Under the pieces are notes generated by a model. The model did not search any database and was not told the DNA's origin. It saw nothing but the letters and a program-made list of their open reading frames with translations. The translations under genes were made by a program, and so were the position numbers. A stretch of DNA of 64,000 bases, from NCBI RefSeq assembly GCF_002854065.1, contig NZ_CP024147.1, one strand, 5' to 3'. The DNA comes from Escherichia coli. Its GTDB lineage: Bacteria > Pseudomonadota > Gammaproteobacteria > Enterobacterales > Enterobacteriaceae. Shown here piece after piece: positions 10,435 through 53,462 of this stretch (the stretch's first letter is position 1; each line of letters opens with the position of its first letter).

Positions 10435-10863
10435 ATGGCAGTTTCAGCAAGAAATCAATTAACCGGAACAGTTAGCGCAGTAGCAATGGGCGCGGTGAAT
10501 GACGAAGTAGAACTGACGCTGGCAGGTGGTGCAAAACTGGTGGCGATTGTTACACACAGCAGCCAACAGGCTCTGGGGCTGGCAAAAGGGAAAGAAGCGA
10601 TTGCCCTGATTAAAGCCCCGTGGGTAACGCTGGCCACGGAAGACTGTGGACTGAAATTCTCTGCTCGCAACCAGTTTGCTGGCAGCGTGTCGACAATCAC
10701 CGAAGGCGCAGTGAACGCCACTGTCCATATCAAAACGGATGCGGGTTTTGAAATTGTGGCAGTGGTAACAAATGAAAGTCAGGATGAAATGAAACTTACC
10801 ACTGGCTCACGCGTTATTGCGTTGATCAAAGCATCAGCAATCCTGATTGCTACCAAAGCGTAA
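10435..10863 (+). CDS. Molbindin (Mop) protein with two tandem TOBE domains
   Basis: aaaggagg RBS before ATG at 10435; 142 aa with internal duplication of ~65-aa TOBE-like repeat (SARNQ..G.VS..). Confidence 0.7.
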   Translation: MAVSARNQLTGTVSAVAMGAVNDEVELTLAGGAKLVAIVTHSSQQALGLAKGKEAIALIKAPWVTLATEDCGLKFSARNQFAGSVSTITEGAVNATVHIKTDAGFEIVAVVTNESQDEMKLTTGSRVIALIKASAILIATKA

Positions 10864-11532: not shown

Positions 11533-14094
11533 ATGAGTGCAATAGAAAATTTCGACGCCCATACGCCCATGATGCAGCAGTATCTCAAGCTGAAAGCCCA
11601 GCATCCCGAGATCCTGCTGTTTTACCGGATGGGTGATTTTTATGAACTGTTTTATGACGACGCAAAACGCGCGTCGCAACTGCTGGATATTTCACTGACC
11701 AAACGCGGTGCTTCGGCGGGAGAGCCGATCCCGATGGCGGGGATTCCCTACCATGCGGTGGAAAACTACCTCGCCAAACTGGTGAATCAGGGCGAGTCCG
11801 TTGCCATCTGCGAACAAATTGGCGATCCGGCGACCAGCAAAGGTCCGGTTGAGCGCAAAGTTGTGCGTATCGTTACGCCAGGCACCATCAGCGATGAAGC
11901 CCTGTTGCAGGAGCGTCAGGACAACCTGCTGGCGGCTATCTGGCAGGACAGCAAAGGTTTCGGCTACGCGACGCTGGATATCAGCTCCGGGCGTTTTCGC
12001 CTGAGCGAACCGGCTGACCGGGAAACGATGGCGGCAGAACTGCAACGCACTAATCCTGCGGAATTGCTGTATGCAGAAGATTTTGCTGAAATGTCGTTAA
12101 TTGAAGGCCGTCGCGGCCTGCGCCGTCGCCCGCTGTGGGAGTTTGAAATCGACACCGCGCGCCAGCAGTTGAATCTGCAATTTGGGACCCGCGATCTGGT
12201 CGGTTTTGGCGTCGAGAACGCGCCGCGCGGACTTTGTGCTGCCGGTTGTCTGTTGCAGTATGCGAAAGATACCCAACGTACGACTCTGCCGCATATTCGT
12301 TCCATCACCATGGAACGTGAGCAGGACAGCATCATTATGGATGCCGCGACGCGTCGTAATCTGGAAATCACCCAGAACCTGGCGGGTGGTGCGGAAAATA
12401 CGCTGGCTTCTGTGCTCGACTGCACCGTCACGCCGATGGGCAGCCGTATGCTGAAACGCTGGCTGCATATGCCAGTGCGCGATACCCGCGTGTTGCTTGA
12501 GCGCCAGCAAACTATTGGCGCATTGCAGGATTTCACCGCCGAGTTACAGCCGGTACTGCGTCAGGTGGGCGATCTGGAACGTATTCTGGCGCGTCTGGCG
12601 TTGCGTACTGCTCGCCCGCGCGATCTGGCCCGTATGCGCCATGCTTTCCAGCAACTGCCGGAACTGCGCGCGCAGTTAGAAAATGTCGATAGTGCACCGG
12701 TACAGGCGCTGCGTGAGAAGATGGGCGAGTTTGCCGAACTGCGCGATCTGCTGGAGCGGGCAATCATCGACACACCACCAGTGCTGGTACGCGACGGTGG
12801 TGTTATCGCACCGGGCTATAACGAAGAGCTGGATGAGTGGCGGGCGCTGGCTGACGGCGCGACCGATTATCTGGAGCGTCTGGAAATCCGCGAGCGTGAA
12901 CGTACCGGCCTGGACACGCTGAAAGTCGGATTTAACGCGGTGCATGGTTATTACATTCAGATCAGCCGTGGACAAAGCCATCTGGCCCCCATCAACTACA
13001 TGCGTCGCCAGACGCTGAAAAATGCCGAGCGCTACATTATTCCAGAGCTAAAAGAGTACGAAGATAAAGTTCTCACCTCAAAAGGCAAAGCACTGGCACT
13101 GGAAAAACAGCTTTATGAAGAGCTGTTCGACCTGCTGTTGCCGCATCTGGAAGCGTTGCAACAGAGCGCAAGCGCGCTGGCAGAACTTGATGTGCTGGTT
13201 AACCTGGCGGAGCGGGCCTATACCCTGAACTACACCTGCCCGACTTTTATTGATAAACCGGGTATTCGCATCACCGAAGGCCGCCATCCGGTGGTTGAAC
13301 AGGTGCTGAATGAGCCGTTTATCGCCAACCCGCTGAACCTGTCGCCACAGCGTCGCATGTTGATCATTACCGGTCCGAATATGGGCGGTAAAAGTACCTA
13401 TATGCGCCAGACCGCACTGATTGCGCTGATGGCCTACATCGGCAGCTATGTACCGGCACAAAAAGTTGAGATTGGACCTATCGATCGCATCTTTACCCGC
13501 GTAGGGGCAGCGGATGATCTGGCATCCGGGCGTTCAACCTTTATGGTGGAAATGACCGAAACCGCCAATATTTTACATAACGCCACCGAATACAGTCTGG
13601 TGTTAATGGATGAGATCGGGCGTGGAACGTCCACTTACGATGGTCTGTCACTGGCATGGGCGTGCGCGGAAAATCTGGCGAATAAGATTAAGGCATTGAC
13701 GCTGTTTGCTACCCACTATTTCGAGCTGACCCAGTTACCGGAGAAAATGGAAGGCGTCGCCAACGTGCATCTCGATGCACTGGAGCACGGCGACACCATT
13801 GCCTTTATGCATAGCGTGCAGGATGGCGCGGCGAGCAAAAGCTACGGCCTGGCGGTTGCAGCTCTGGCGGGCGTGCCAAAAGAGGTGATTAAGCGCGCAC
13901 GGCAAAAACTGCGTGAGCTGGAAAGTATTTCGCCGAACGCCGCCGCTACACAAGTGGATGGTACGCAAATGTCTTTGCTGTCAGTACCGGAAGAAACCTC
14001 GCCAGCGGTCGAAGCTCTGGAAAATCTCGACCCGGATTCACTAACTCCGCGTCAGGCGCTGGAATGGATTTATCGCTTGAAGAGTCTGGTGTAA
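11533..14094 (+). CDS. mutS: DNA mismatch repair protein MutS
   Basis: 853-aa ORF starting [27 protein letters not shown] Walker A. Confidence 0.95.
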
Positions 14095-14199
14095 TAACAA
14101 TTCCCGATAGAAAAATACTATCGGGAATATTATCTACAGCTGACGAATCAAATAAAAATACCCTGTATAATAGGAAAGTTTATTTTACAGGGTAAAACC

Positions 14200-14856
14200 A
14201 TGCCATCTACACGCTATCAAAAAATCAATGCCCATCACTATCGCCATATATGGGTCGTTGGTGATATTCATGGTGAATATCAGTTATTACAATCCCGCTT
14301 ACATCAACTCTCTTTTTTCCCCGAAACCGACTTACTTATTTCTGTCGGCGATAATATTGATCGTGGGCCGGAGAGTCTTGACGTCCTGCGCCTGCTAAAC
14401 CAGCCCTGGTTTATCTCCGTTAAAGGCAACCACGAAGCAATGGCGCTGGATGCGTTCGCGACCGGCGATGGCAATATGTGGCTTGCCAGCGGTGGTGACT
14501 GGTTCTTTGAGTTAAATGATATGGAACAAAAAGAAGCTATAGGTCTATTGCTGAAATTTCATCAACTTCCACATATTATTGAAATTACCAACGACATTAT
14601 AAAATATGTCATCGCACATGCGGATTATCCGGGCAATGAATATCTCTTTGGCGGACAAATAGCGGAGAGCGAATTACTTTGGCCTGTTGATCGTGTGCAG
14701 AAATCTCTTAATGGCGAGTTACAACAAATAAACGGCGCTGATTATTTTATATTTGGACATATGATGCTTGATAACATTCAGACGTTCGCTAACCAGATTT
14801 ATATTGATACCGGATCGCCGAAAAGCGGGCGGCTGTCATTTTATAAAATAAAGTAG
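14200..14856 (+). CDS. pphB: Serine/threonine protein phosphatase 2
   Basis: 218-aa ORF with GDIHG and GDNIDRG metallophosphatase motifs. Confidence 0.85.
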   Translation: MPSTRYQKINAHHYRHIWVVGDIHGEYQLLQSRLHQLSFFPETDLLISVGDNIDRGPESLDVLRLLNQPWFISVKGNHEAMALDAFATGDGNMWLASGGDWFFELNDMEQKEAIGLLLKFHQLPHIIEITNDIIKYVIAHADYPGNEYLFGGQIAESELLWPVDRVQKSLNGELQQINGADYFIFGHMMLDNIQTFANQIYIDTGSPKSGRLSFYKIK

Positions 14857-19540: not shown

Positions 19541-20836
19541 ATGTCCACAATTACATTGTTATGCATTGCGTTAACTGGCGTAATCATGCTGTTGCTGCTG
19601 GTCATCAAGGCAAAGGTACAACCATTCGTTGCTCTGCTCCTCGTCAGCCTGTTAGTCGCACTTGCGGCGGGTATACCGGCGGGCGAAGTGGGTAAAGTGA
19701 TGATCGCCGGGATGGGCGGTGTGCTTGGTTCCGTCACTATTATTATTGGTCTGGGCGCTATGCTGGGGCGTATGATCGAACACTCTGGTGGTGCAGAGTC
19801 ACTGGCTAATTATTTCAGTCGCAAGTTAGGTGACAAACGAACTATCGCTGCGCTGACTCTGGCAGCGTTCTTCCTCGGTATTCCCGTCTTCTTTGATGTC
19901 GGCTTTATTATTCTTGCGCCAATCATTTACGGTTTTGCCAAGGTTGCCAAAATATCGCCACTCAAATTTGGCCTGCCTGTCGCTGGGATCATGCTAACTG
20001 TACATGTGGCGGTACCGCCGCATCCAGGCCCTGTCGCCGCAGCAGGGTTACTCCACGCAGACATCGGCTGGCTAACCATCATCGGTATTGCGATTTCTAT
20101 TCCCGTAGGGATTGTTGGCTACTTTGCAGCGAAAATAATCAATAAGCGCCAATATGCGATGTCGGTGGAAGTACTGGAACAGATGCAACTGGCTCCGGCC
20201 AGTGAGGAAGGCGCGACAAAATTAAGCGATAAAATAAATCCACCGGGCGTCGCGCTGGTCACCTCGCTAATTGTTATTCCTATCGCGATTATCATGGCGG
20301 GTACGGTTTCCGCAACACTGATGCCGCCTTCGCATCCCCTGCTTGGTACGCTACAGCTGATCGGCTCACCAATGGTAGCTCTAATGATTGCGCTGGTGCT
20401 GGCATTCTGGTTATTGGCTTTACGTCGCGGCTGGAGCTTACAACACACCAGCGACATTATGGGCTCAGCGCTTCCTACTGCGGCGGTAGTGATTTTGGTT
20501 ACTGGTGCTGGAGGGGTATTTGGCAAAGTGCTGGTGGAATCGGGCGTCGGCAAAGCCCTTGCCAACATGTTACAAATGATTGACCTGCCTCTGTTACCAG
20601 CCGCATTTATTATTTCACTGGCGCTGCGTGCATCGCAGGGGTCAGCAACCGTAGCAATACTGACAACCGGCGGGTTACTCTCAGAAGCGGTGATGGGATT
20701 GAATCCGATTCAGTGCGTATTGGTGACGCTGGCAGCCTGCTTTGGTGGGCTTGGTGCGTCACATATTAATGACTCAGGGTTCTGGATTGTGACCAAATAT
20801 CTGGGATTGTCGGTAGCAGACGGTCTGAAAACCTAG
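19541..20836 (+). CDS. ygbN: GntP-family permease, truncated by premature amber codon
   Basis: 431-aa ORF ends at TAG 20834-20836; same frame continues 22 hydrophobic codons (TVLTTILGFTGFLITWCVWAVI) to TGA at 20903-20905. Confidence 0.8.
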   Translation: MSTITLLCIALTGVIMLLLLVIKAKVQPFVALLLVSLLVALAAGIPAGEVGKVMIAGMGGVLGSVTIIIGLGAMLGRMIEHSGGAESLANYFSRKLGDKRTIAALTLAAFFLGIPVFFDVGFIILAPIIYGFAKVAKISPLKFGLPVAGIMLTVHVAVPPHPGPVAAAGLLHADIGWLTIIGIAISIPVGIVGYFAAKIINKRQYAMSVEVLEQMQLAPASEEGATKLSDKINPPGVALVTSLIVIPIAIIMAGTVSATLMPPSHPLLGTLQLIGSPMVALMIALVLAFWLLALRRGWSLQHTSDIMGSALPTAAVVILVTGAGGVFGKVLVESGVGKALANMLQMIDLPLLPAAFIISLALRASQGSATVAILTTGGLLSEAVMGLNPIQCVLVTLAACFGGLGASHINDSGFWIVTKYLGLSVADGLKT

Positions 20837-20913
20837 ACAGTGTTAACGACCATTCTCGGTTTTACCGGATTCTTAATTACCTGGTGCGTATGGGCGGTAA
20901 TTTGACCTTAATA

Positions 20914-20946
20914 AAAAGGTCCGATGAGCATCGGACCTTTTATTTA
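20914..20946. terminator. Bidirectional intrinsic terminator between ygbN and ecdD
   Basis: Perfect hairpin aaaaggtccgatg-agc-atcggacctttt flanked by A-run and T-run. Confidence 0.45.
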
Positions 20947-21180
20947 GCGCTTATCTGCCGCCAGCAGCGGCGGAATGCTCGGCACCATTGGCGCGTCATC
21001 AATATCTTTCTGCGTCATGCGGAACTCTTCGGGATAATGTTCGCGGCTGGTACGGCGCAGCGGTTCGGTATCGCGCCAGGTATAAAGGCAATGCTGGCAC
21101 TGATATACCGTCCAGACATCTTTCACCGGCGATTTCGCCATCACTTCAATCTGTTCATCGGCACAACGTGGACAAATCAT
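20944..21180 (-). CDS. ecdD: Phenolic acid decarboxylase small subunit D
   Basis: 78-aa ORF with CPRC...CQHC zinc-ribbon motifs, downstream of UbiD-like gene. Confidence 0.8.
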   Translation of the reverse strand: MICPRCADEQIEVMAKSPVKDVWTVYQCQHCLYTWRDTEPLRRTSREHYPEEFRMTQKDIDDAPMVPSIPPLLAADKR

Positions 21181-21190
21181 CTTCTTCTCC

Positions 21191-22618
21191 TTATTTACGT
21201 GCAGCCAGCATAGCGGTCAGTTTTTCAGCCCAGGCTTTGGTTTCCGGCAAATCCACCACCGGCTGGCTGTAGTGACCACGGTTGTCCGGGGCGACAGGCG
21301 TGGTGGCGTCGATAATCAGCTTGTCGGTGATCCCCGCCGGGCTTGAGCCAGGGTCGAGTTCCAGCACGGACATATTCGGCAACTGCACCAAATCCCCTGC
21401 CGGGTTCACTTTCGAGGAGAGCGCCCACATCACCTGCGGCAGGTTGAACGGATCAACGTCTTCATCGACCATAATCACCATCTTCACGTAGCCCAGACCG
21501 TGCGGCGTGGTCATCGCGCGCAGGCCCACCGCGCGGGCAAAGCCGCCGTAGCGTTTTTTGGTGGAGATAATCGCCAGCAGGCCGTGGGTGTACATGGCGT
21601 TTACCGCCTGCACTTCCGGGAACTCGGCTTTCAGTTGTTGATATAGCGGTACGCAGGTGGCTGGCCCCATCAGGTAGTCGATTTCGGTCCACGGCATGCC
21701 GAGGTACAGCGATTCGAAAATCGGCCTGGTGCGGTAAGAGACTTTATCGATGCGCACCACGGTCATGTTACGCCCGCCGGAGTAGTGTCCGGTAAACTCA
21801 CCGAACGGCCCTTCGATTTCGCGTTTACGGCTTTCGATGACCCCTTCGAGGATCGCTTCTGAACCCCACGGCACATCAAAACCGGTCAGCGGGGCGGTGG
21901 CGATCGGGTACGAGCTTTCACGCAGCGCGCCTGCCATTTCATACTCAGACTGATCGTATTTCAGCGGCGTGGCCCCCATCAGCGTGATGATCGGATCGTT
22001 ACCGAGCGTGATCGCAATCGGCAGATCTTCACCGCGCTCTTCTGCTTTATGCAGATGCAGGGCGATATCGTGCATCGGCACCGGTTGCAGGCCGAGCTTA
22101 CGCTTGCCCTTCACTTCCATGCGGTAGATGCCGACGTTCTGCTTGCCGAAGTTATCCGGGTCGAGCGGATCGCGGGAAACCACGCACGCTTTGTCGAGAT
22201 AGAAACCGCCATCACCGTCGTTTAAACGAAACAGCGGCAGGATATCGAACAGATTAATCTCGTCACCATCGACGGTGTTCTGCGCCCAGGCTGGATTGGC
22301 GCGGCGCTCCGGGGCAATCGGGAAGTTATCCCAGCGGCGGATAAACTCATCAATCTGTTTTTTAACCGGGGTGTTTGGCGGCAGGCCCAAGGAAATCGCG
22401 TGGTTCTGCCAGGAACCGATGGTATTCATCGCCACGCGGGCATCGGTAAAACCGCGAATATTATCAAACCACAGCGCCGGTGCACCATCGCCGATACGCC
22501 CGGTGGCGTTGGCAGCGGCAGCCAGATCCGGTTCCGCGTTCACCTCTTCGCTGATTTTCAGTAACTGGCCGTGGTCATCAAGCGCCTGTAAAAAGCTGCG
22601 TAAATCATCAAATGCCAT
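21191..22618 (-). CDS. ecdC: UbiD-family phenolic acid decarboxylase subunit C
   Basis: 475-aa ORF, UbiD-family decarboxylase. Confidence 0.85.
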   Translation of the reverse strand: MAFDDLRSFLQALDDHGQLLKISEEVNAEPDLAAAANATGRIGDGAPALWFDNIRGFTDARVAMNTIGSWQNHAISLGLPPNTPVKKQIDEFIRRWDNFPIAPERRANPAWAQNTVDGDEINLFDILPLFRLNDGDGGFYLDKACVVSRDPLDPDNFGKQNVGIYRMEVKGKRKLGLQPVPMHDIALHLHKAEERGEDLPIAITLGNDPIITLMGATPLKYDQSEYEMAGALRESSYPIATAPLTGFDVPWGSEAILEGVIESRKREIEGPFGEFTGHYSGGRNMTVVRIDKVSYRTRPIFESLYLGMPWTEIDYLMGPATCVPLYQQLKAEFPEVQAVNAMYTHGLLAIISTKKRYGGFARAVGLRAMTTPHGLGYVKMVIMVDEDVDPFNLPQVMWALSSKVNPAGDLVQLPNMSVLELDPGSSPAGITDKLIIDATTPVAPDNRGHYSQPVVDLPETKAWAEKLTAMLAARK

Positions 22619-23211
22619 TATTCATTCTCCTGAGAAAAATTCCGGGCCTGCGGCAATCCTTGCCAGCGCCTGGCGTAGGGATGTTCAAGGCCAAATTGAT
22701 CCAGCACGCGGGCTACCACGTGGTGGACAATGTCATCTACCGTTTCGGGATGGTTATAAAAGGCAGGCATCGGCGGCACCATCGCCACGCCCATGCGTGA
22801 AAGTGCGAGCATATTTTCGAGATGGATGGTGTTAAGCGGCATTTCACGCGGCACCAGTACCAGTTTGCGGCCTTCTTTGAGCACGACGTCCGCCGCGCGC
22901 CCTACCAGGCCATCGGCGTAACCAGCGCGGATACCGGCGAGCGTTTTCATACTGCACGGAATAACGATCATGCCGTCGGTACGAAAGGAACCTGAGGAGA
23001 TGGTCGCCGCCTGATCCGCCGGGTTATGGCTGAAGTCAGCGAGGGCAGCAACATCGCGGGCGCTGTAAGGCGTTTCCAGTTCAATGGTGGTTTTCGCCCA
23101 CTTCGACATCACCAGATGAGTCTCGATATTCGGCATCTCCTGCAGCGCTTGCAGTAATGCCACACCAAGAGGCGCACCGGTAGCCCCTGTCATCCCGACG
23201 ATCAGTTTCAT
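22618..23211 (-). CDS. ecdB: UbiX-like flavin prenyltransferase, decarboxylase subunit B
   Basis: 197-aa ORF starting MKLIVGMTGATGA, flavoprotein fold; overlaps ecdC start. Confidence 0.85.
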   Translation of the reverse strand: MKLIVGMTGATGAPLGVALLQALQEMPNIETHLVMSKWAKTTIELETPYSARDVAALADFSHNPADQAATISSGSFRTDGMIVIPCSMKTLAGIRAGYADGLVGRAADVVLKEGRKLVLVPREMPLNTIHLENMLALSRMGVAMVPPMPAFYNHPETVDDIVHHVVARVLDQFGLEHPYARRWQGLPQARNFSQENE

Positions 23212-23324
23212 TGCTTACTCTCTTAATTGTTCGTATACGAACGTTATTATTAAAATACGCCTCTGTTCTCATTGCGGCAAGCACTGAAAAGTAACAACAT
23301 CCCCTTCGTCACTGAAAAACCGCT

Positions 23325-23765
23325 ATGATAGCGGCAGATAGTTTGCCCGGAGTTTACATGGCGTTACGAAATAAAGCGTTCCATCAGTTACGACAGCTTT
23401 TTCAGCAGCACACATCTCGCTGGCAGCACGAGTTACCTGACCTGACCAAACCACAGTATGCGGTGATGCGTGCCATTGCTGATAAGCCTGGTATCGAACA
23501 GGTGGCACTGATAGAAGCAGCAGTCAGCACCAAAGCAACGCTGGCAGAAATGTTGGCAAGAATGGAAAATCGTGGCTTAGTCAGACGTGAACATGACGCC
23601 GCTGATAAGCGGCGACGCTTTGTCTGGCTGACTGCCGAAGGAGAAAAGATACTTGCTGCGGCGATACCGATTGGTGACAGCGTGGATGAGGAATTTTTGG
23701 GGCGTTTGAGTGCAGAAGAGCAGGAGCTGTTTATGCAGCTGGTGCGCAAGATGATGAACACATAG
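23325..23765 (+). CDS. MarR/SlyA-family transcriptional regulator, divergent from ecdBCD
   Basis: 146-aa ORF with winged-helix MarR signature. Confidence 0.75.
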   Translation: MIAADSLPGVYMALRNKAFHQLRQLFQQHTSRWQHELPDLTKPQYAVMRAIADKPGIEQVALIEAAVSTKATLAEMLARMENRGLVRREHDAADKRRRFVWLTAEGEKILAAAIPIGDSVDEEFLGRLSAEEQELFMQLVRKMMNT

Positions 23766-23837
23766 GATGCAAATTGCCGGGTAGGACGCTGACGTGTCTT
23801 ATCCAGGCGACAAAAACACATGCTTCCCAAACAAAAG

Positions 23838-23872
23838 AAAAAAGGCCAGCCTCGCTTGAGACTGGCCTTTCT
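23838..23872 (-). terminator. rpoS intrinsic terminator
   Basis: Minus strand: GGCCAGTCTCAAGCGAGGCTGGCC hairpin followed by TTTTTTCTTTTG. Confidence 0.5.
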
Positions 23873-34945: not shown

Positions 34946-35070
34946 TGGGTTTGAAATGATGACTCCCGTGCCTGCAGGAAATCAATGCCACCTGAAACAG
35001 AGAATAAAAAAGGGTGCAGGAGGCCAAACCATCACAATTCAATACGCGGGGTTTTACCCCCGCGTGGTGG

Positions 35071-35223
35071 CTACTTCTTCGATTCGTAAGCGAGAACTGC
35101 CTTAAACTCCATACCACGCTCTCTGATACTCAACTCACATAACGAGTCGCCTACCATGAGCGTGAATCCCAGTACTGTACAACACAGTACTATGATTGCC
35201 ACAAGGGCATATTTTGTTAGCAT
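35071..35223 (-). CDS. Hok-family type I toxin (hokX-like), intact 50-aa ORF
   Basis: [50 protein letters not shown]: TM helix plus conserved SLCEL...LAYES C-terminus; GGGAGG SD 6 nt upstream. Confidence 0.75.
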
Positions 35224-35430
35224 GTCTTGCCTCCCTGCAAAGAAGAGACTAACATCCGAATTGCTACGTTCGAACGCGAGCCTCAGGTTGATAGAAATAT
35301 CGCCTGGGGCTTTTGTCCATCTGGAACCTCGCGAATGCTTAACGCCAGACAGCCTCAAGCACCCGACGCCATTCTATACCTGATAATTCTTCCAGCGGCG
35401 TTCACGTTTAAAATCAGGAATGCTGCTCGC

Positions 35431-35470
35431 AAAATAAAAACGCCCCCATCATTTCTGACAGAGGCGTTTA
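35431..35470 (-). terminator. Likely cysJIH operon terminator
   Basis: Minus strand hairpin (aacgcctc...gggggcgtt) followed by TTTTTATTTT just downstream of cysH stop. Confidence 0.4.
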
Positions 35471-35486
35471 ATTTATCCGGCAATAT

Positions 35487-36221
35487 TTACCCTTCGTGTA
35501 ACCCACATTCCCTTTTTAAGCCAAAGAAACGCGTTTCTTCTTCCGCCATGCCGGGTTCCCATTTACGGGTTGTATGGGTATCGCCCACCGATAAATATCC
35601 TTCGTCCCATAATGGGTGATATTTCAGGCCATGTTTTTGCAGGTACTGATAAATAGTTCGGTTATCCCAGTCGATAATCGGCAGCACTTTAAATACGCCA
35701 CGCTGAATTGCCAGCACCGGTAAATTGGCGCGGCTGCCGGATTGTTCACGGCGCAGGCCAGCAAACCAGGTTTGCGCATTCAGTTCTTTTAGCGCCCGGT
35801 TCATCGGTTCGACTTTGTTGATGTCATTGTACTTTTCAATGCCTTCAACGCCCTGTTCCCACAGTTTTCCGTAGCGTGCTTCCTGCCAGGCTGCGCTTTC
35901 GGTAGCACGGTACACTTTCAGGTTGAGCTTGAGTTTGTCCGTTAACTCGTCAATAAAGCGGTAGGTTTCCGGGAACAAGTAACCGGTATCGGTGAGGATC
36001 ACTGGAATATCCGGGCGAATCTGATTCACCAGATGCAGGCTCACCGCCGCCTGAATGCCGAAGCTGGAAGAAAGCACATATTCACCGGGCAGATTATCCA
36101 GCGCCCAGGCTACGCGGCCTTCAGCGTCCAGTTTTTCCAGTTGGGCGTTAGTTTCCGCCAGCGCCAGAATGCGATCTACCTTCGGCAGTTCGTTCAGGGC
36201 GTTTAGATCGAGTTTGGACAT
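35487..36221 (-). CDS. cysH: Phosphoadenosine phosphosulfate reductase
   Basis: Start at [12 protein letters not shown] inside longer ORF; 244 aa; C-terminal ECGLH motif. Confidence 0.9.
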
Positions 36222-52520: not shown

Positions 52521-52692
52521 ATGAAAAAGGATTTAAACATGCTCAGGATATTCATCGTAATTATATTTATTTTCAATTTATCAGGCTGTGGATATAACGA
52601 TATTCAAACCTATGATGAGCAGGTTAACGCCTCCTGGTCTGAGGTATTAAATCAATATCAACGTCGCGCCGATCTTATTCCTAATCTTGTCG
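52521..52692 (+). pseudogene. LemA-family lipoprotein gene, 5' fragment truncated by IS1
   Basis: AAGGA RBS; MKKDLNMLRIFIVIIFIFNLSGCGYN... with LSGC lipobox; reading frame runs into IS1 left end after 57 codons. Confidence 0.6.
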
Positions 52693-52747
52693 GGTGATGC
52701 TGCCAACTTACTGATTTAGTGTATGATGGTGTTTTTGAGGTGCTCCA

Positions 52748-53023
52748 GTGGCTTCTGTTTCTATCAGCTGTCCCTCCTGTTCAGCTACTGACGGGGTGGT
52801 GCGTAACGGCAAAAGCACTGCCGGACATCAGCGCTATCTCTGCTCTCACTGCCGTAAAACATGGCAACTGCAGTTCACTTACACCGCTTCTCAACCCGGT
52901 ACGCACCAGAAAATCATTGATATGGCCATGAATGGCGTTGGATGCCGGGCAACCGCCCGCATTATGGGCGTTGGCCTCAACACGATTTTCCGCCATTTAA
53001 AAAACTCAGGCCGCAGTCGGTAA
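52748..53023 (+). CDS. insA: IS1 InsA
   Basis: 91 aa [21 protein letters not shown]..., GTG start. Confidence 0.9.
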
Positions 53024-53445
53024 CCTCGCGCATACAGCCGGGCAGTGACGTCATCGTCTGCGCGGAAATGGACGAACAGTGGGGATACGTCGGGGCTAAA
53101 TCGCGCCAGCGCTGGCTGTTTTACGCGTATGACAGGCTCCGGAAGACGGTTGTTGCGCACGTATTCGGTGAACGCACTATGGCGACGCTGGGGCGTCTTA
53201 TGAGCCTGCTGTCACCCTTTGACGTGGTGATATGGATGACGGATGGCTGGCCGCTGTATGAATCCCGCCTGAAGGGAAAGCTGCACGTAATCAGCAAGCG
53301 ATATACGCAGCGAATTGAGCGGCATAACCTGAATCTGAGGCAGCACCTGGCACGGCTGGGACGGAAGTCGCTGTCGTTCTCAAAATCGGTGGAGCTGCAT
53401 GACAAAGTCATCGGGCATTATCTGAACATAAAACACTATCAATAA
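52942..53445 (+). CDS. insB: IS1 InsB (transposase C-terminal part, expressed as InsAB' by -1 frameshift)
   Basis: 167-aa ORF in -1 frame relative to insA, recognised IS1 InsB. Confidence 0.85.
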
Positions 53446-53462
53446 GTTGGAGTCATTACCTG

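Follow-up and report, generated by a model that had tools for sequence, protein, structure and literature searches.

The ecdBCD-hosA segment between ygbN and rpoS of Escherichia coli: a 4-hydroxybenzoate-responsive decarboxylase operon probably retained at an ancestral position

Known decarboxylase systems and the ecdBCD genes

An operon that combines a UbiD-type C subunit, a zinc-ribbon D subunit and a UbiX-type B protein is known from the VdcCD systems of Sedimentibacter hydroxybenzoicus and Bacillus subtilis (ShdCD and BsdCD; PDB 7AE4/5/7), and the same combination is found in the locus described here. The regulator of the B. subtilis operon is the LysR-type BsdA, in contrast to the MarR protein of our locus. 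VdcC needs VdcD, a Zn ribbon, and the enzyme, which is oxygen-sensitive in vitro, acts on 4-hydroxybenzoate (4-HBA) and vanillate (PMC8379154). According to a review table citing Lupa 2005 (PMC6644310), EcdCD of E. coli O157:H7 has the same two substrates as BsdBCD of B. subtilis, and the decarboxylation assay proposed in the first-pass annotation is thus already reported, in this table, for the O157:H7 orthologue. HosA of E. coli UMN026 and EPEC E2348/69 (PDB 8AGA and six further entries) has the same operator and the same divergent position as the regulator found here; UMN026 HosA binds 4-HBA (Kd ~4.7 uM), which relieves its binding to DNA (PMC6261655). Repression by HosA of the operon and of its own gene, and its release by 4-HBA, are credited to Roy & Ranjan 2016 as cited in bioRxiv 10.1101/2024.04.24.590444 and PMC6261655. 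On the other hand, UbiX and UbiD of ubiquinone biosynthesis in K-12 share the two enzyme folds and the prFMN chemistry with EcdB and EcdC, but they have no D subunit, act on a membrane-bound polyprenylated substrate and are encoded by unlinked genes.

The window, a stretch of 64,000 nucleotides of an E. coli chromosome, carries three intact, closely packed genes on the minus strand in its ORF list, with a divergent MarR gene alongside. The operon ecdBCD is also named vdc, kpd, ycl or pad1.

20944-21180 (including the stop codon), minus strand: ecdD (vdcD/kpdD/yclD), 78 aa, zinc-ribbon decarboxylase subunit
21191-22618, minus strand: ecdC (vdcC/kpdC/yclC), 475 aa, UbiD-family prFMN-dependent hydroxyarylic acid decarboxylase
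22618-23211, minus strand: ecdB (pad1/vdcB/kpdB), 197 aa, UbiX-type flavin prenyltransferase making the prFMN cofactor

The ORFs matched their families far past the chance level in profile scores. All three passed the NCBIfam cut-offs for VdcD (NF041205; 121.2 bits, cut-off 30), VdcC (NF041204; 785.7 bits, cut-off 650) and VdcB (NF041206; 311 bits, cut-off 290), which bears out the earlier reading of a UbiX-like ecdB, a UbiD-like ecdC and a zinc-ribbon ecdD at these positions, and the Pfam domains in the cluster were UbiD_N/UbiD/UbiD_C, Flavoprotein and MarR. Gene identities and intactness are thus established directly. EcdB also passed generic UbiX-family models (258 and 246 bits). EcdC scored 173 bits against the true UbiD equivalog (4-hydroxy-3-polyprenylbenzoate decarboxylase), under its 788-bit cut-off, and stayed under the cut-offs of all other NCBIfam equivalogs including the menaquinone and phenylphosphate types. 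Because EcdC misses the UbiD cut-off, EcdB/EcdC and UbiX/UbiD are paralogues, not orthologues.

Crystal structures exist for near-identical or homologous versions of all four proteins. EcdB is identical in 194 of 197 residues to the crystallised Pad1 of O157:H7 (PDB 1sbz). EcdC aligned to PDB 7ae4_A over residues 3-471 (E=2.8e-159), a full-length but distant likeness to the VdcCD C subunit (roughly 60% by eye), and the motifs GIYR (R166) and EGPFGE (E269, E274) were conserved in the alignment with ShVdcC. These residues we take to correspond to R173/E277/E282 of Fdc1, the catalytic ERE residues of UbiD enzymes. EcdD aligned to chain a of PDB 7ae4 (ShdD/VdcD; E=1.7e-11) with all four Zn-binding Cys in register, despite a 6-residue insertion and a longer tail in EcdD; its two CxxC knuckles (C3, C6, C28, C31) have the same numbering as those of ShVdcD (PMC8379154). 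The ecdB and ecdC genes share 1 nt (TAATG), and ecdD follows ecdC after a gap of 10 nt with GGAG ahead of its ATG, a spacing that fits one operon. An Rfam search of the region found no RNA family.

By analogy with published orthologues, EcdB would prenylate reduced FMN to prFMN, and EcdC, kept active by EcdD, would use prFMN for reversible CO2 removal, turning 4-HBA into phenol and vanillate into guaiacol. The strain is predicted to carry out both conversions under the control of HosA. Which way the reaction runs physiologically, and which substrate it meets naturally in the gut, are deduced from the inducer.

Segment edges and distribution in E. coli

Edges of the segment were determined by blastn against the K-12 J53 and MG1655, O157:H7 and ST131 loci. 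Homology with K-12 stops at 20944 and restarts at 23840, and the segment lies exactly between the terminators of ygbN and rpoS.

20945-23839: segment absent from K-12, 2,895 bp, equal to the '2.9-kb insert' of the literature
20918-20945: hairpin with T/A tracts after ygbN, read from sequence, touching the ecdD stop codon; left edge of the segment and likely a bidirectional terminator
23839-23872, minus strand: rpoS intrinsic terminator, from a terminator scan; right edge of the segment
23776-23808: REP-like imperfect palindrome, read from sequence, between hosA and the rpoS terminator

In MG1655, ygbN and rpoS are only 93 bp apart without these genes, and the segment stands in place of 8 bp of this spacer. 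The statement that K-12 lacks the genes at this site therefore holds. Strain MINF_2E has a clearer REP at the position matching 23776-23808 and another REP is found in an alternative ST131 insert, while K-12 has none; the REP-like palindrome may take part in rearrangement.

The segment was present, at a coverage of at least 80%, in 2,380 of 5,426 complete E. coli genomes (~44%), always as a single chromosomal copy; this distribution is observed directly. A plasmid search revealed no genuine carriage in E. coli, since the three E. coli 'plasmid' matches were mislabelled chromosomes of 4.8-4.9 Mb. The ygbN-ecdD junction of the window is shared by 1,601 of the 2,380 genomes and corresponds to 'pattern IV' of the mutS-rpoS/o454-nlpD region, an EPEC-type arrangement of ygbN (o454), kpdDCB and 'slyA' (PMC4209514). 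The window belongs to this pattern, with the segment between ygbN and rpoS and with ygbI-N present. The remaining carriers are probably O157-like, judged on sampled rows. The comparison with O157:H7 and other E. coli genomes that had been suggested thus found the segment widely. In O157:H7 EDL933/Sakai, ecdBCD (pad1-yclC-yclD) and hosA have the same order and edges as in the window, with 98.1-98.2% DNA identity over 2,895 bp, but the cluster adjoins pphB because ygbI-ygbN are missing there, whereas the window retains ygbI-N. The segment had also been taken to mark the chromosome as non-K-12; the chromosome is indeed not K-12, its best match being strain CUWW06, but the marker is a weak one since the segment occurs in 44% of the complete genomes of E. 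coli. The allele itself is rare, being found in 2 of the 5,426 genomes at an identity of at least 99%.

Probable retention of the segment at the rpoS site

Polymorphism of the mutS-rpoS region is described in PMC4209514, which refers to LeClerc 1999, Herbelin 2000 and Culham & Wood 2000. The first-pass annotation spoke of a known polymorphic insertion; the polymorphism is indeed published, but synteny shows the polarity of an insertion to be wrong, with the deletion on the side of K-12. Dozens of other species of Enterobacteriaceae (in Citrobacter, Klebsiella, Enterobacter, Kluyvera, Kosakonia, Atlantibacter, Franconibacter, Mangrovibacter and others) share the order nlpD-rpoS-hosA/ecdBCD-mutS, and a position of the cluster between rpoS and mutS is seen in most other genera of the family. 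Among 80 related loci in other species, 51 had rpoS in the same locus; within these, hosA stood directly beside rpoS in 34, the cluster was inverted in 5, and mutS lay on the other side in most. This gene order argues that the cluster is ancestral and that K-12 lost the segment. Moreover, ecdC matches its counterparts in other genera at ~86-88% DNA identity, comparable to rpoS (85-93%) and mutS (82-85%), as vertical descent would give. In K-12 and many other lineages, a deletion between the terminators of ygbN and rpoS would have removed the 2.9-kb segment. We therefore consider, with a probability of roughly 90%, that ecdBCD and hosA form a 4-HBA-responsive decarboxylase operon kept at its ancestral rpoS-mutS position, with loss by deletion in K-12.

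The opposite polarity, that the segment is a horizontally acquired island which entered some lineages of E. coli, appears quite improbable. It would account for the absence from K-12 with sharp edges, for the GC content of ecdC (55-60%, versus ~51-53% in the flanks) and for the lower identity within E. coli of the segment (95-98%) than of the flanks (~99%), and transfer of hosA from Shigella has been argued in a preprint (bioRxiv 10.1101/2024.04.24.590444). However, the same order of genes across many genera speaks against it, and the ORF list and sequence at both edges showed neither an integrase nor a tRNA, IS or direct repeat. With neither edge features nor true plasmid carriage, and with synteny across genera, a genomic island or mobile element was dropped as a candidate. 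Shigella is phylogenetically E. coli, so that the 97.6% identity to S. dysenteriae is no evidence of transfer. The likeness to Pseudocitrobacter, unusually high in ecdCD (94%, as compared with 82% in ecdB and 70% in hosA at the DNA level), also favors acquisition, and it points to some intergeneric exchange on top of vertical descent. Given the conservation of the segment at the rpoS site across Enterobacteriaceae, what has been called a '2.9-kb insertion' in O157:H7, or a 'horizontally acquired HosA' in the preprint, is more aptly seen as a segment that was retained and that K-12-like and B2 lineages have lost. The chromosome can accordingly be typed as o454-nlpD pattern IV, with the ancestral ecdBCD-hosA segment beside rpoS that K-12 has lost.

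A further speculation, which we regard as unlikely, is that phenolic-acid detoxification in the gut, with phenol as its product, is under fluctuating or balancing selection. The E. coli population would then keep two old haplotypes of the control region between ecdB and hosA, 86% identical near the presumed promoter and with an invariant operator, ecdCD would have been swapped between Escherichia and Pseudocitrobacter, and deletions between REP-like or terminator sequences would have occurred repeatedly. In addition, since hosA is convergent with rpoS, the 3' end of rpoS or its antisense transcription might differ between chromosomes with and without the segment.

HosA and the ecdB-hosA control region

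The divergent gene and its control region are as follows.

23358-23765, plus strand: hosA, 135 aa, MarR-family repressor sensing 4-HBA, assigned by near-identity to HosA and by Pfam MarR
23212-23357: divergent ecdB-hosA control region, 146 bp, read from sequence
23229-23242: HosA operator GTTCGTATACGAAC, a perfect 14-bp palindrome 17 bp upstream of the ecdB ATG

The longest version of the MarR ORF begins at 23325, but the true start is 23358, since the RefSeq annotation of an identical strain uses this ATG and crystallised HosA aligns over residues 1-135. The protein matched Pfam MarR (45.2 bits, cut-off 24.6) and is identical in 133 of 135 residues to PDB 8aga, 'Transcriptional regulator HosA', the two substitutions relative to the crystallised sequence being S20A and I98V. 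The divergent MarR/SlyA-family regulator of the earlier description can thus be narrowed to HosA. It reached none of the NCBIfam cut-offs for the SlyA, MarR and HpaR equivalogs and is therefore not SlyA, the name under which hosA has long been annotated (PMC4209514).

The operator has a single exact match in the window and is the core of the oligo T_H (...AATTGTTCGTATACGAACGTTATTA) used in assays of HosA binding and its release by 4-HBA (PMC6261655 supplement); its presence here is established directly, and alignment showed it unchanged across three E. coli alleles. Another palindrome given for the RPA probes in the same supplement, CAAGCATATGCTTG, is absent from the window; it amounts to the real site GTTCGTATACGAAC printed as its complement in 3'->5' direction, and other probes of that table have the site itself. 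The control region is 99.3% identical to that of O157:H7 but only 86% to that of strain MINF_2E, with the differences clustered at ~23254-23285. A scan for the sigma-70 consensus gave chance-level matches only, none of them in the ecdB-hosA intergenic region, and no promoter was assigned; the literature would place the operator between the ecdB promoter and the start codon, relative to the transcription start. As carried over from the published, near-identical orthologues, HosA dimers on GTTCGTATACGAAC would repress both the operon and hosA, and 4-HBA would bind HosA and make it leave the DNA, so that the substrate may induce its own removal.

That HosA acts above all as a global or virulence regulator of motility and fliC, with the decarboxylase genes as incidental neighbours, is very improbable. 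An EPEC hosA mutant is reported to be reduced in FliC and motility (Ferrandiz 2005, as cited in bioRxiv 10.1101/2024.04.24.590444), and the annotation as 'slyA' has long pointed in the same direction. On the other hand, hosA and ecdB(CD) are divergently arranged in almost all genera looked at, among them non-pathogens and genera outside Enterobacteriaceae, the high-affinity operator of HosA sits in the intergenic stretch that the two share, and the ligand of HosA is the substrate of the enzyme itself. UbiX-type enzymes are interchangeable suppliers of prFMN, and K-12 makes ubiquinone without the ecdBCD cluster. The idea that the cluster serves mostly as a backup for ubiquinone biosynthesis, EcdB feeding prFMN to UbiD and EcdC serving as a second UbiD, could draw on this interchangeability, on the generic UbiX scores of EcdB and on an O157:H7 genomics paper of 2025 that puts EcdB under 'ubiquinone biosynthesis' (PMC12711010), but it is extremely improbable given that EcdC fails the UbiD cut-off yet passes VdcC, that it has a VdcD partner which true UbiD lacks, that HosA responds to free 4-HBA, and that K-12 does without the cluster.

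The region is thus the known and well-studied ecdBCD operon with its HosA repressor, ordinary and explained already: enzyme activity, regulator, ligand, operator, structures and polymorphism are all in print, and the significance is small outside annotation. The proteins of this allele differ from the characterised ones by a few substitutions.

The ecd genes and their products

The first-pass annotation, made from the sequence alone, placed UbiX-like, UbiD-like and zinc-ribbon genes on the minus strand, with a divergent regulator, at 20944-23765; this observation was confirmed, with exact ORF coordinates. Its interpretation holds up, refined on three points: HosA is the regulator, the polymorphism reflects loss and not gain, and the cluster is frequent. 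The literature already covers the enzyme, its cofactor route, the accessory subunit, the regulator, its ligand and operator, crystal structures and the population polymorphism.

Features of the cluster
20944-21180, minus strand: ecdD, 78 aa (ORF list)
21191-22618, minus strand: ecdC, 475 aa (ORF list)
22618-23211, minus strand: ecdB, 197 aa (ORF list)
23229-23242, no strand: predicted HosA operator, palindrome GTTCGTATACGAAC, exact match to the published site
23358 (ATG) to 23765 (ORF end), plus strand: hosA (ORF list and HosA alignment)

The ecdB and ecdC genes overlap by one base (TAATG), and a 10-nt gap with GGAG ahead of the ecdD ATG separates ecdC from ecdD; tight packing of this kind is usual in operons with translational coupling. 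The Pfam domains were Flavoprotein in EcdB, UbiD_N/UbiD/UbiD_C in EcdC and MarR in the plus-strand protein. All three subunits passed the curated NCBIfam cut-offs for non-oxidative hydroxyarylic acid decarboxylases: EcdB scored 311 bits for VdcB (cut-off 290), EcdC 786 for VdcC (650) and EcdD 121 for VdcD (30). As a genuine UbiD, EcdC failed (173 bits against a cut-off of 788). EcdB is identical at 194/197 residues to Pad1 of E. coli O157:H7 (PDB 1SBZ). Residues 3-471 of EcdC align with subunit C of Sedimentibacter VdcCD, whose complex is solved (7AE4, E=2.8e-159), keeping the GIYR (R166) and EGPFGE (E269, E274) stretches; we take R166, E269 and E274 to be the UbiD Arg/Glu/Glu triad, presumably equivalent to the Fdc1 residues. 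EcdD in turn aligns with subunit D of that complex and has Cys3, Cys6, Cys28 and Cys31 at the positions of the four reported ShVdcD zinc ligands (PMC8379154).

VdcC shows no activity unless VdcD is present; VdcD is a zinc ribbon with a stabilising effect on the catalytic loops. The complex decarboxylates 4-hydroxybenzoate (4-HBA) and vanillate, and its cofactor, prFMN, is oxygen-sensitive (PMC8379154). According to a review table citing Lupa et al. 2005, heterologously expressed EcdCD of O157:H7 shares these two substrates with B. subtilis BsdBCD (PMC6644310). The published Vdc/HosA picture fits the anatomy of the window genes.

HosA and the control region

Starting at ATG 23358, the regulator shares 133/135 residues with the protein crystallised as 'Transcriptional regulator HosA' (8AGA plus six other entries). 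Of its earlier description as a divergent MarR/SlyA-family regulator, the MarR family and the orientation stand, narrowed to HosA specifically; it is not SlyA itself. RefSeq starts hosA at the same ATG in strain CUWW06, which is nearly identical, and translation of the longer ORF that opens at 23325 probably does not occur.

In E. coli UMN026, both the operon and hosA itself are under HosA repression; the protein binds a palindromic site downstream of the transcription start, and 4-HBA releases it (Roy & Ranjan 2016, as related in bioRxiv 10.1101/2024.04.24.590444). A 4-HBA biosensor was built on purified HosA, with a 14-bp binding site and a Kd for 4-HBA of ~4.7 uM, and the HosA probe of that study includes AATTGTTCGTATACGAACGTTATTA (PMC6261655). 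The window contains this stretch exactly; GTTCGTATACGAAC matches without mismatch only once across the 64 kb, 17 bp ahead of the ecdB start codon. A promoter scan of the 146-bp ecdB-hosA intergenic region gave nothing convincing. This region has two forms in E. coli, the window/O157 type and the type of strain MINF_2E, only 86% identical; the differences concentrate at ~23254-23285, a stretch of about 30 bp on the upstream side of the invariant operator, and may be promoter variants. In the RPA-probe set of supplementary table S1 of PMC6261655, the HosA site is printed as CAAGCATATGCTTG. Read 3'->5', this is the complement of the native GTTCGTATACGAAC that the table's other probe sets carry, either a quirk of notation or an inconsistency in the design.

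Presence, loss and synteny of the segment

The claim that K-12 lacks these genes held: homology to K-12 (a J53 derivative and MG1655) stops at 20944 and resumes at 23840, 2,895 bp of the window standing in place of 8 bp (GTGCACAG) within K-12's 93-bp ygbN-rpoS spacer. The left edge is a hairpin and T-tract 3' of ygbN, adjoining the ecdD stop codon, and the right edge is the rpoS terminator; a search of both edges found no integrase genes, IS elements, tRNA genes or direct repeats. O157:H7 carries the same segment and edges, adjoining pphB because ygbI-ygbN is missing there. In ST131 the site is occupied by another insert, which encodes an MBL-fold hydrolase plus a flavodoxin. In the scheme of Ewers et al. 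(PMC4209514), K-12 shows pattern II, O157:H7 pattern I and ST131 pattern III, and the window, with ygbN and the cluster, is pattern IV. A REP-like palindrome lies at 23776-23808, between hosA and the rpoS terminator; the ST131 insert and other alleles have clearer REPs at that position, K-12 none. REP-associated recombination may have shaped the variants.

An EcdC scan of one-genome-per-species contigs gave 80 loci, whose neighbours were placed by tblastn. rpoS lay inside the fetched flank at 51 of the 80, in genera including Citrobacter, Klebsiella, Enterobacter, Kluyvera, Kosakonia, Leclercia, Atlantibacter, Franconibacter, Mangrovibacter and Pseudocitrobacter, mostly with mutS on the opposite side. 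It directly adjoined hosA, as in the window, in 34/51; a short extra stretch intervened in 12/51; and in 5/51 (L022, L025, L027, L050 and L053, from Salmonella enterica subsp. arizonae and subsp. diarizonae, and Phytobacter) the cluster was inverted, ecdD and not hosA facing rpoS. Loci with neither rpoS nor mutS nearby (24/80) were mostly outside Enterobacteriaceae (Pantoea, Rahnella, Erwinia, Vibrio, Shewanella). ecdC DNA is ~86-88% identical to that of these genera, similar to rpoS and mutS. By this similarity and the synteny, the cluster is ancestral at the rpoS-mutS site and K-12 carries a deletion. The "known polymorphic insertion" of the first-pass annotation is thus a published polymorphism (PMC4209514) whose direction is reversed, 'insertion' being historical wording. 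A recent preprint claimed that hosA was acquired horizontally from Shigella, for which the conserved rpoS-hosA/ecdBCD-mutS synteny gives no support.

In some loci (L045, L057, L058, L065, L069, L071, L077, L078, L083, L085, L086; examples are Superficieibacter, Cedecea, Chimaeribacter, Siccibacter, some Rahnella and Erwinia endophytica), hosA directly adjoins ecdC with no ecdB match between; prFMN for such clusters presumably comes from the housekeeping UbiX.

Counting presence as at least 80% of the segment, 2,380 of 5,426 complete E. coli genomes carry it, always as a single chromosomal copy, 'plasmid' matches being mislabelled chromosomes of 4.8-4.9 Mb. The ygbN-ecdD junction of the window occurs in 1,601 of the 2,380; the remaining ~780 are taken as O157-like from inspection of sampled rows. 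The chromosome is indeed non-K-12, as the cluster, many other differences and its best match, CUWW06, show, but the cluster is a common marker, not a distinctive one.

Allele mosaicism and other features

The window allele is rare, with just two of the 5,426 genomes reaching 99% identity or more; the figure is 98.2% for O157:H7 alleles and 95-97% for most others, and the flanks ygbI-N and rpoS-truD are ~99-99.7% identical to K-12. Pseudocitrobacter (L011-L013) ecdC and ecdD DNA is ~94% identical to 20947-22618, against 82% for ecdB, 70% for hosA, 89% for rpoS and 86% for mutS, a pattern suggesting that the ecdCD half has undergone some exchange between genera, with a putative breakpoint at the ecdB/ecdC boundary. 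Neither the allele rarity, the two control-region forms, the Pseudocitrobacter likeness nor the REP alters the verdict. Separately, mutS and pphB (11533-14856) are 93-96.6% identical to K-12, O157:H7 and MINF_2E and look like an imported block, which agrees with published reports of mutS alleles moving horizontally.

The GntP-family transporter gene ygbN (19541-20905) has a premature TAG at 20834-20836 (AAA ACC TAG ACA), at expected codon 432 of 454, leaving 431 aa; in near-identical CUWW06 it is annotated as a pseudogene (internal stop). The neighbouring ecd cluster of the window is intact. A TOBE-domain (molybdenum-pterin-binding-like) gene at 10435-10863 (plus strand), between fhlA and ygbA, corresponds to the 'c3292' marker of PMC4209514 and is absent from K-12 MG1655 and O157:H7 G5295, where fhlA adjoins ygbA. 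No type I-E CRISPR-Cas locus was found from iap to cysH (34946-35488), and the K-12 type I-E repeat had zero matches at <=3 mismatches across the whole window. This interval holds only a hok-family toxin gene (35072-35224, minus strand) and an antisense RNA:

35208-35364, no strand: sok antisense RNA (Rfam RF01794, 105 bits)

An IS1 copy at ~52675-53460 interrupts a LemA-family gene beside degraded TPM-domain genes. The window therefore derives from a near relative of CUWW06 and not from the CUWW06 assembly itself, which shares this insertion and has a second IS1, absent from the window, in an SDR oxidoreductase gene (~48030 in window coordinates).
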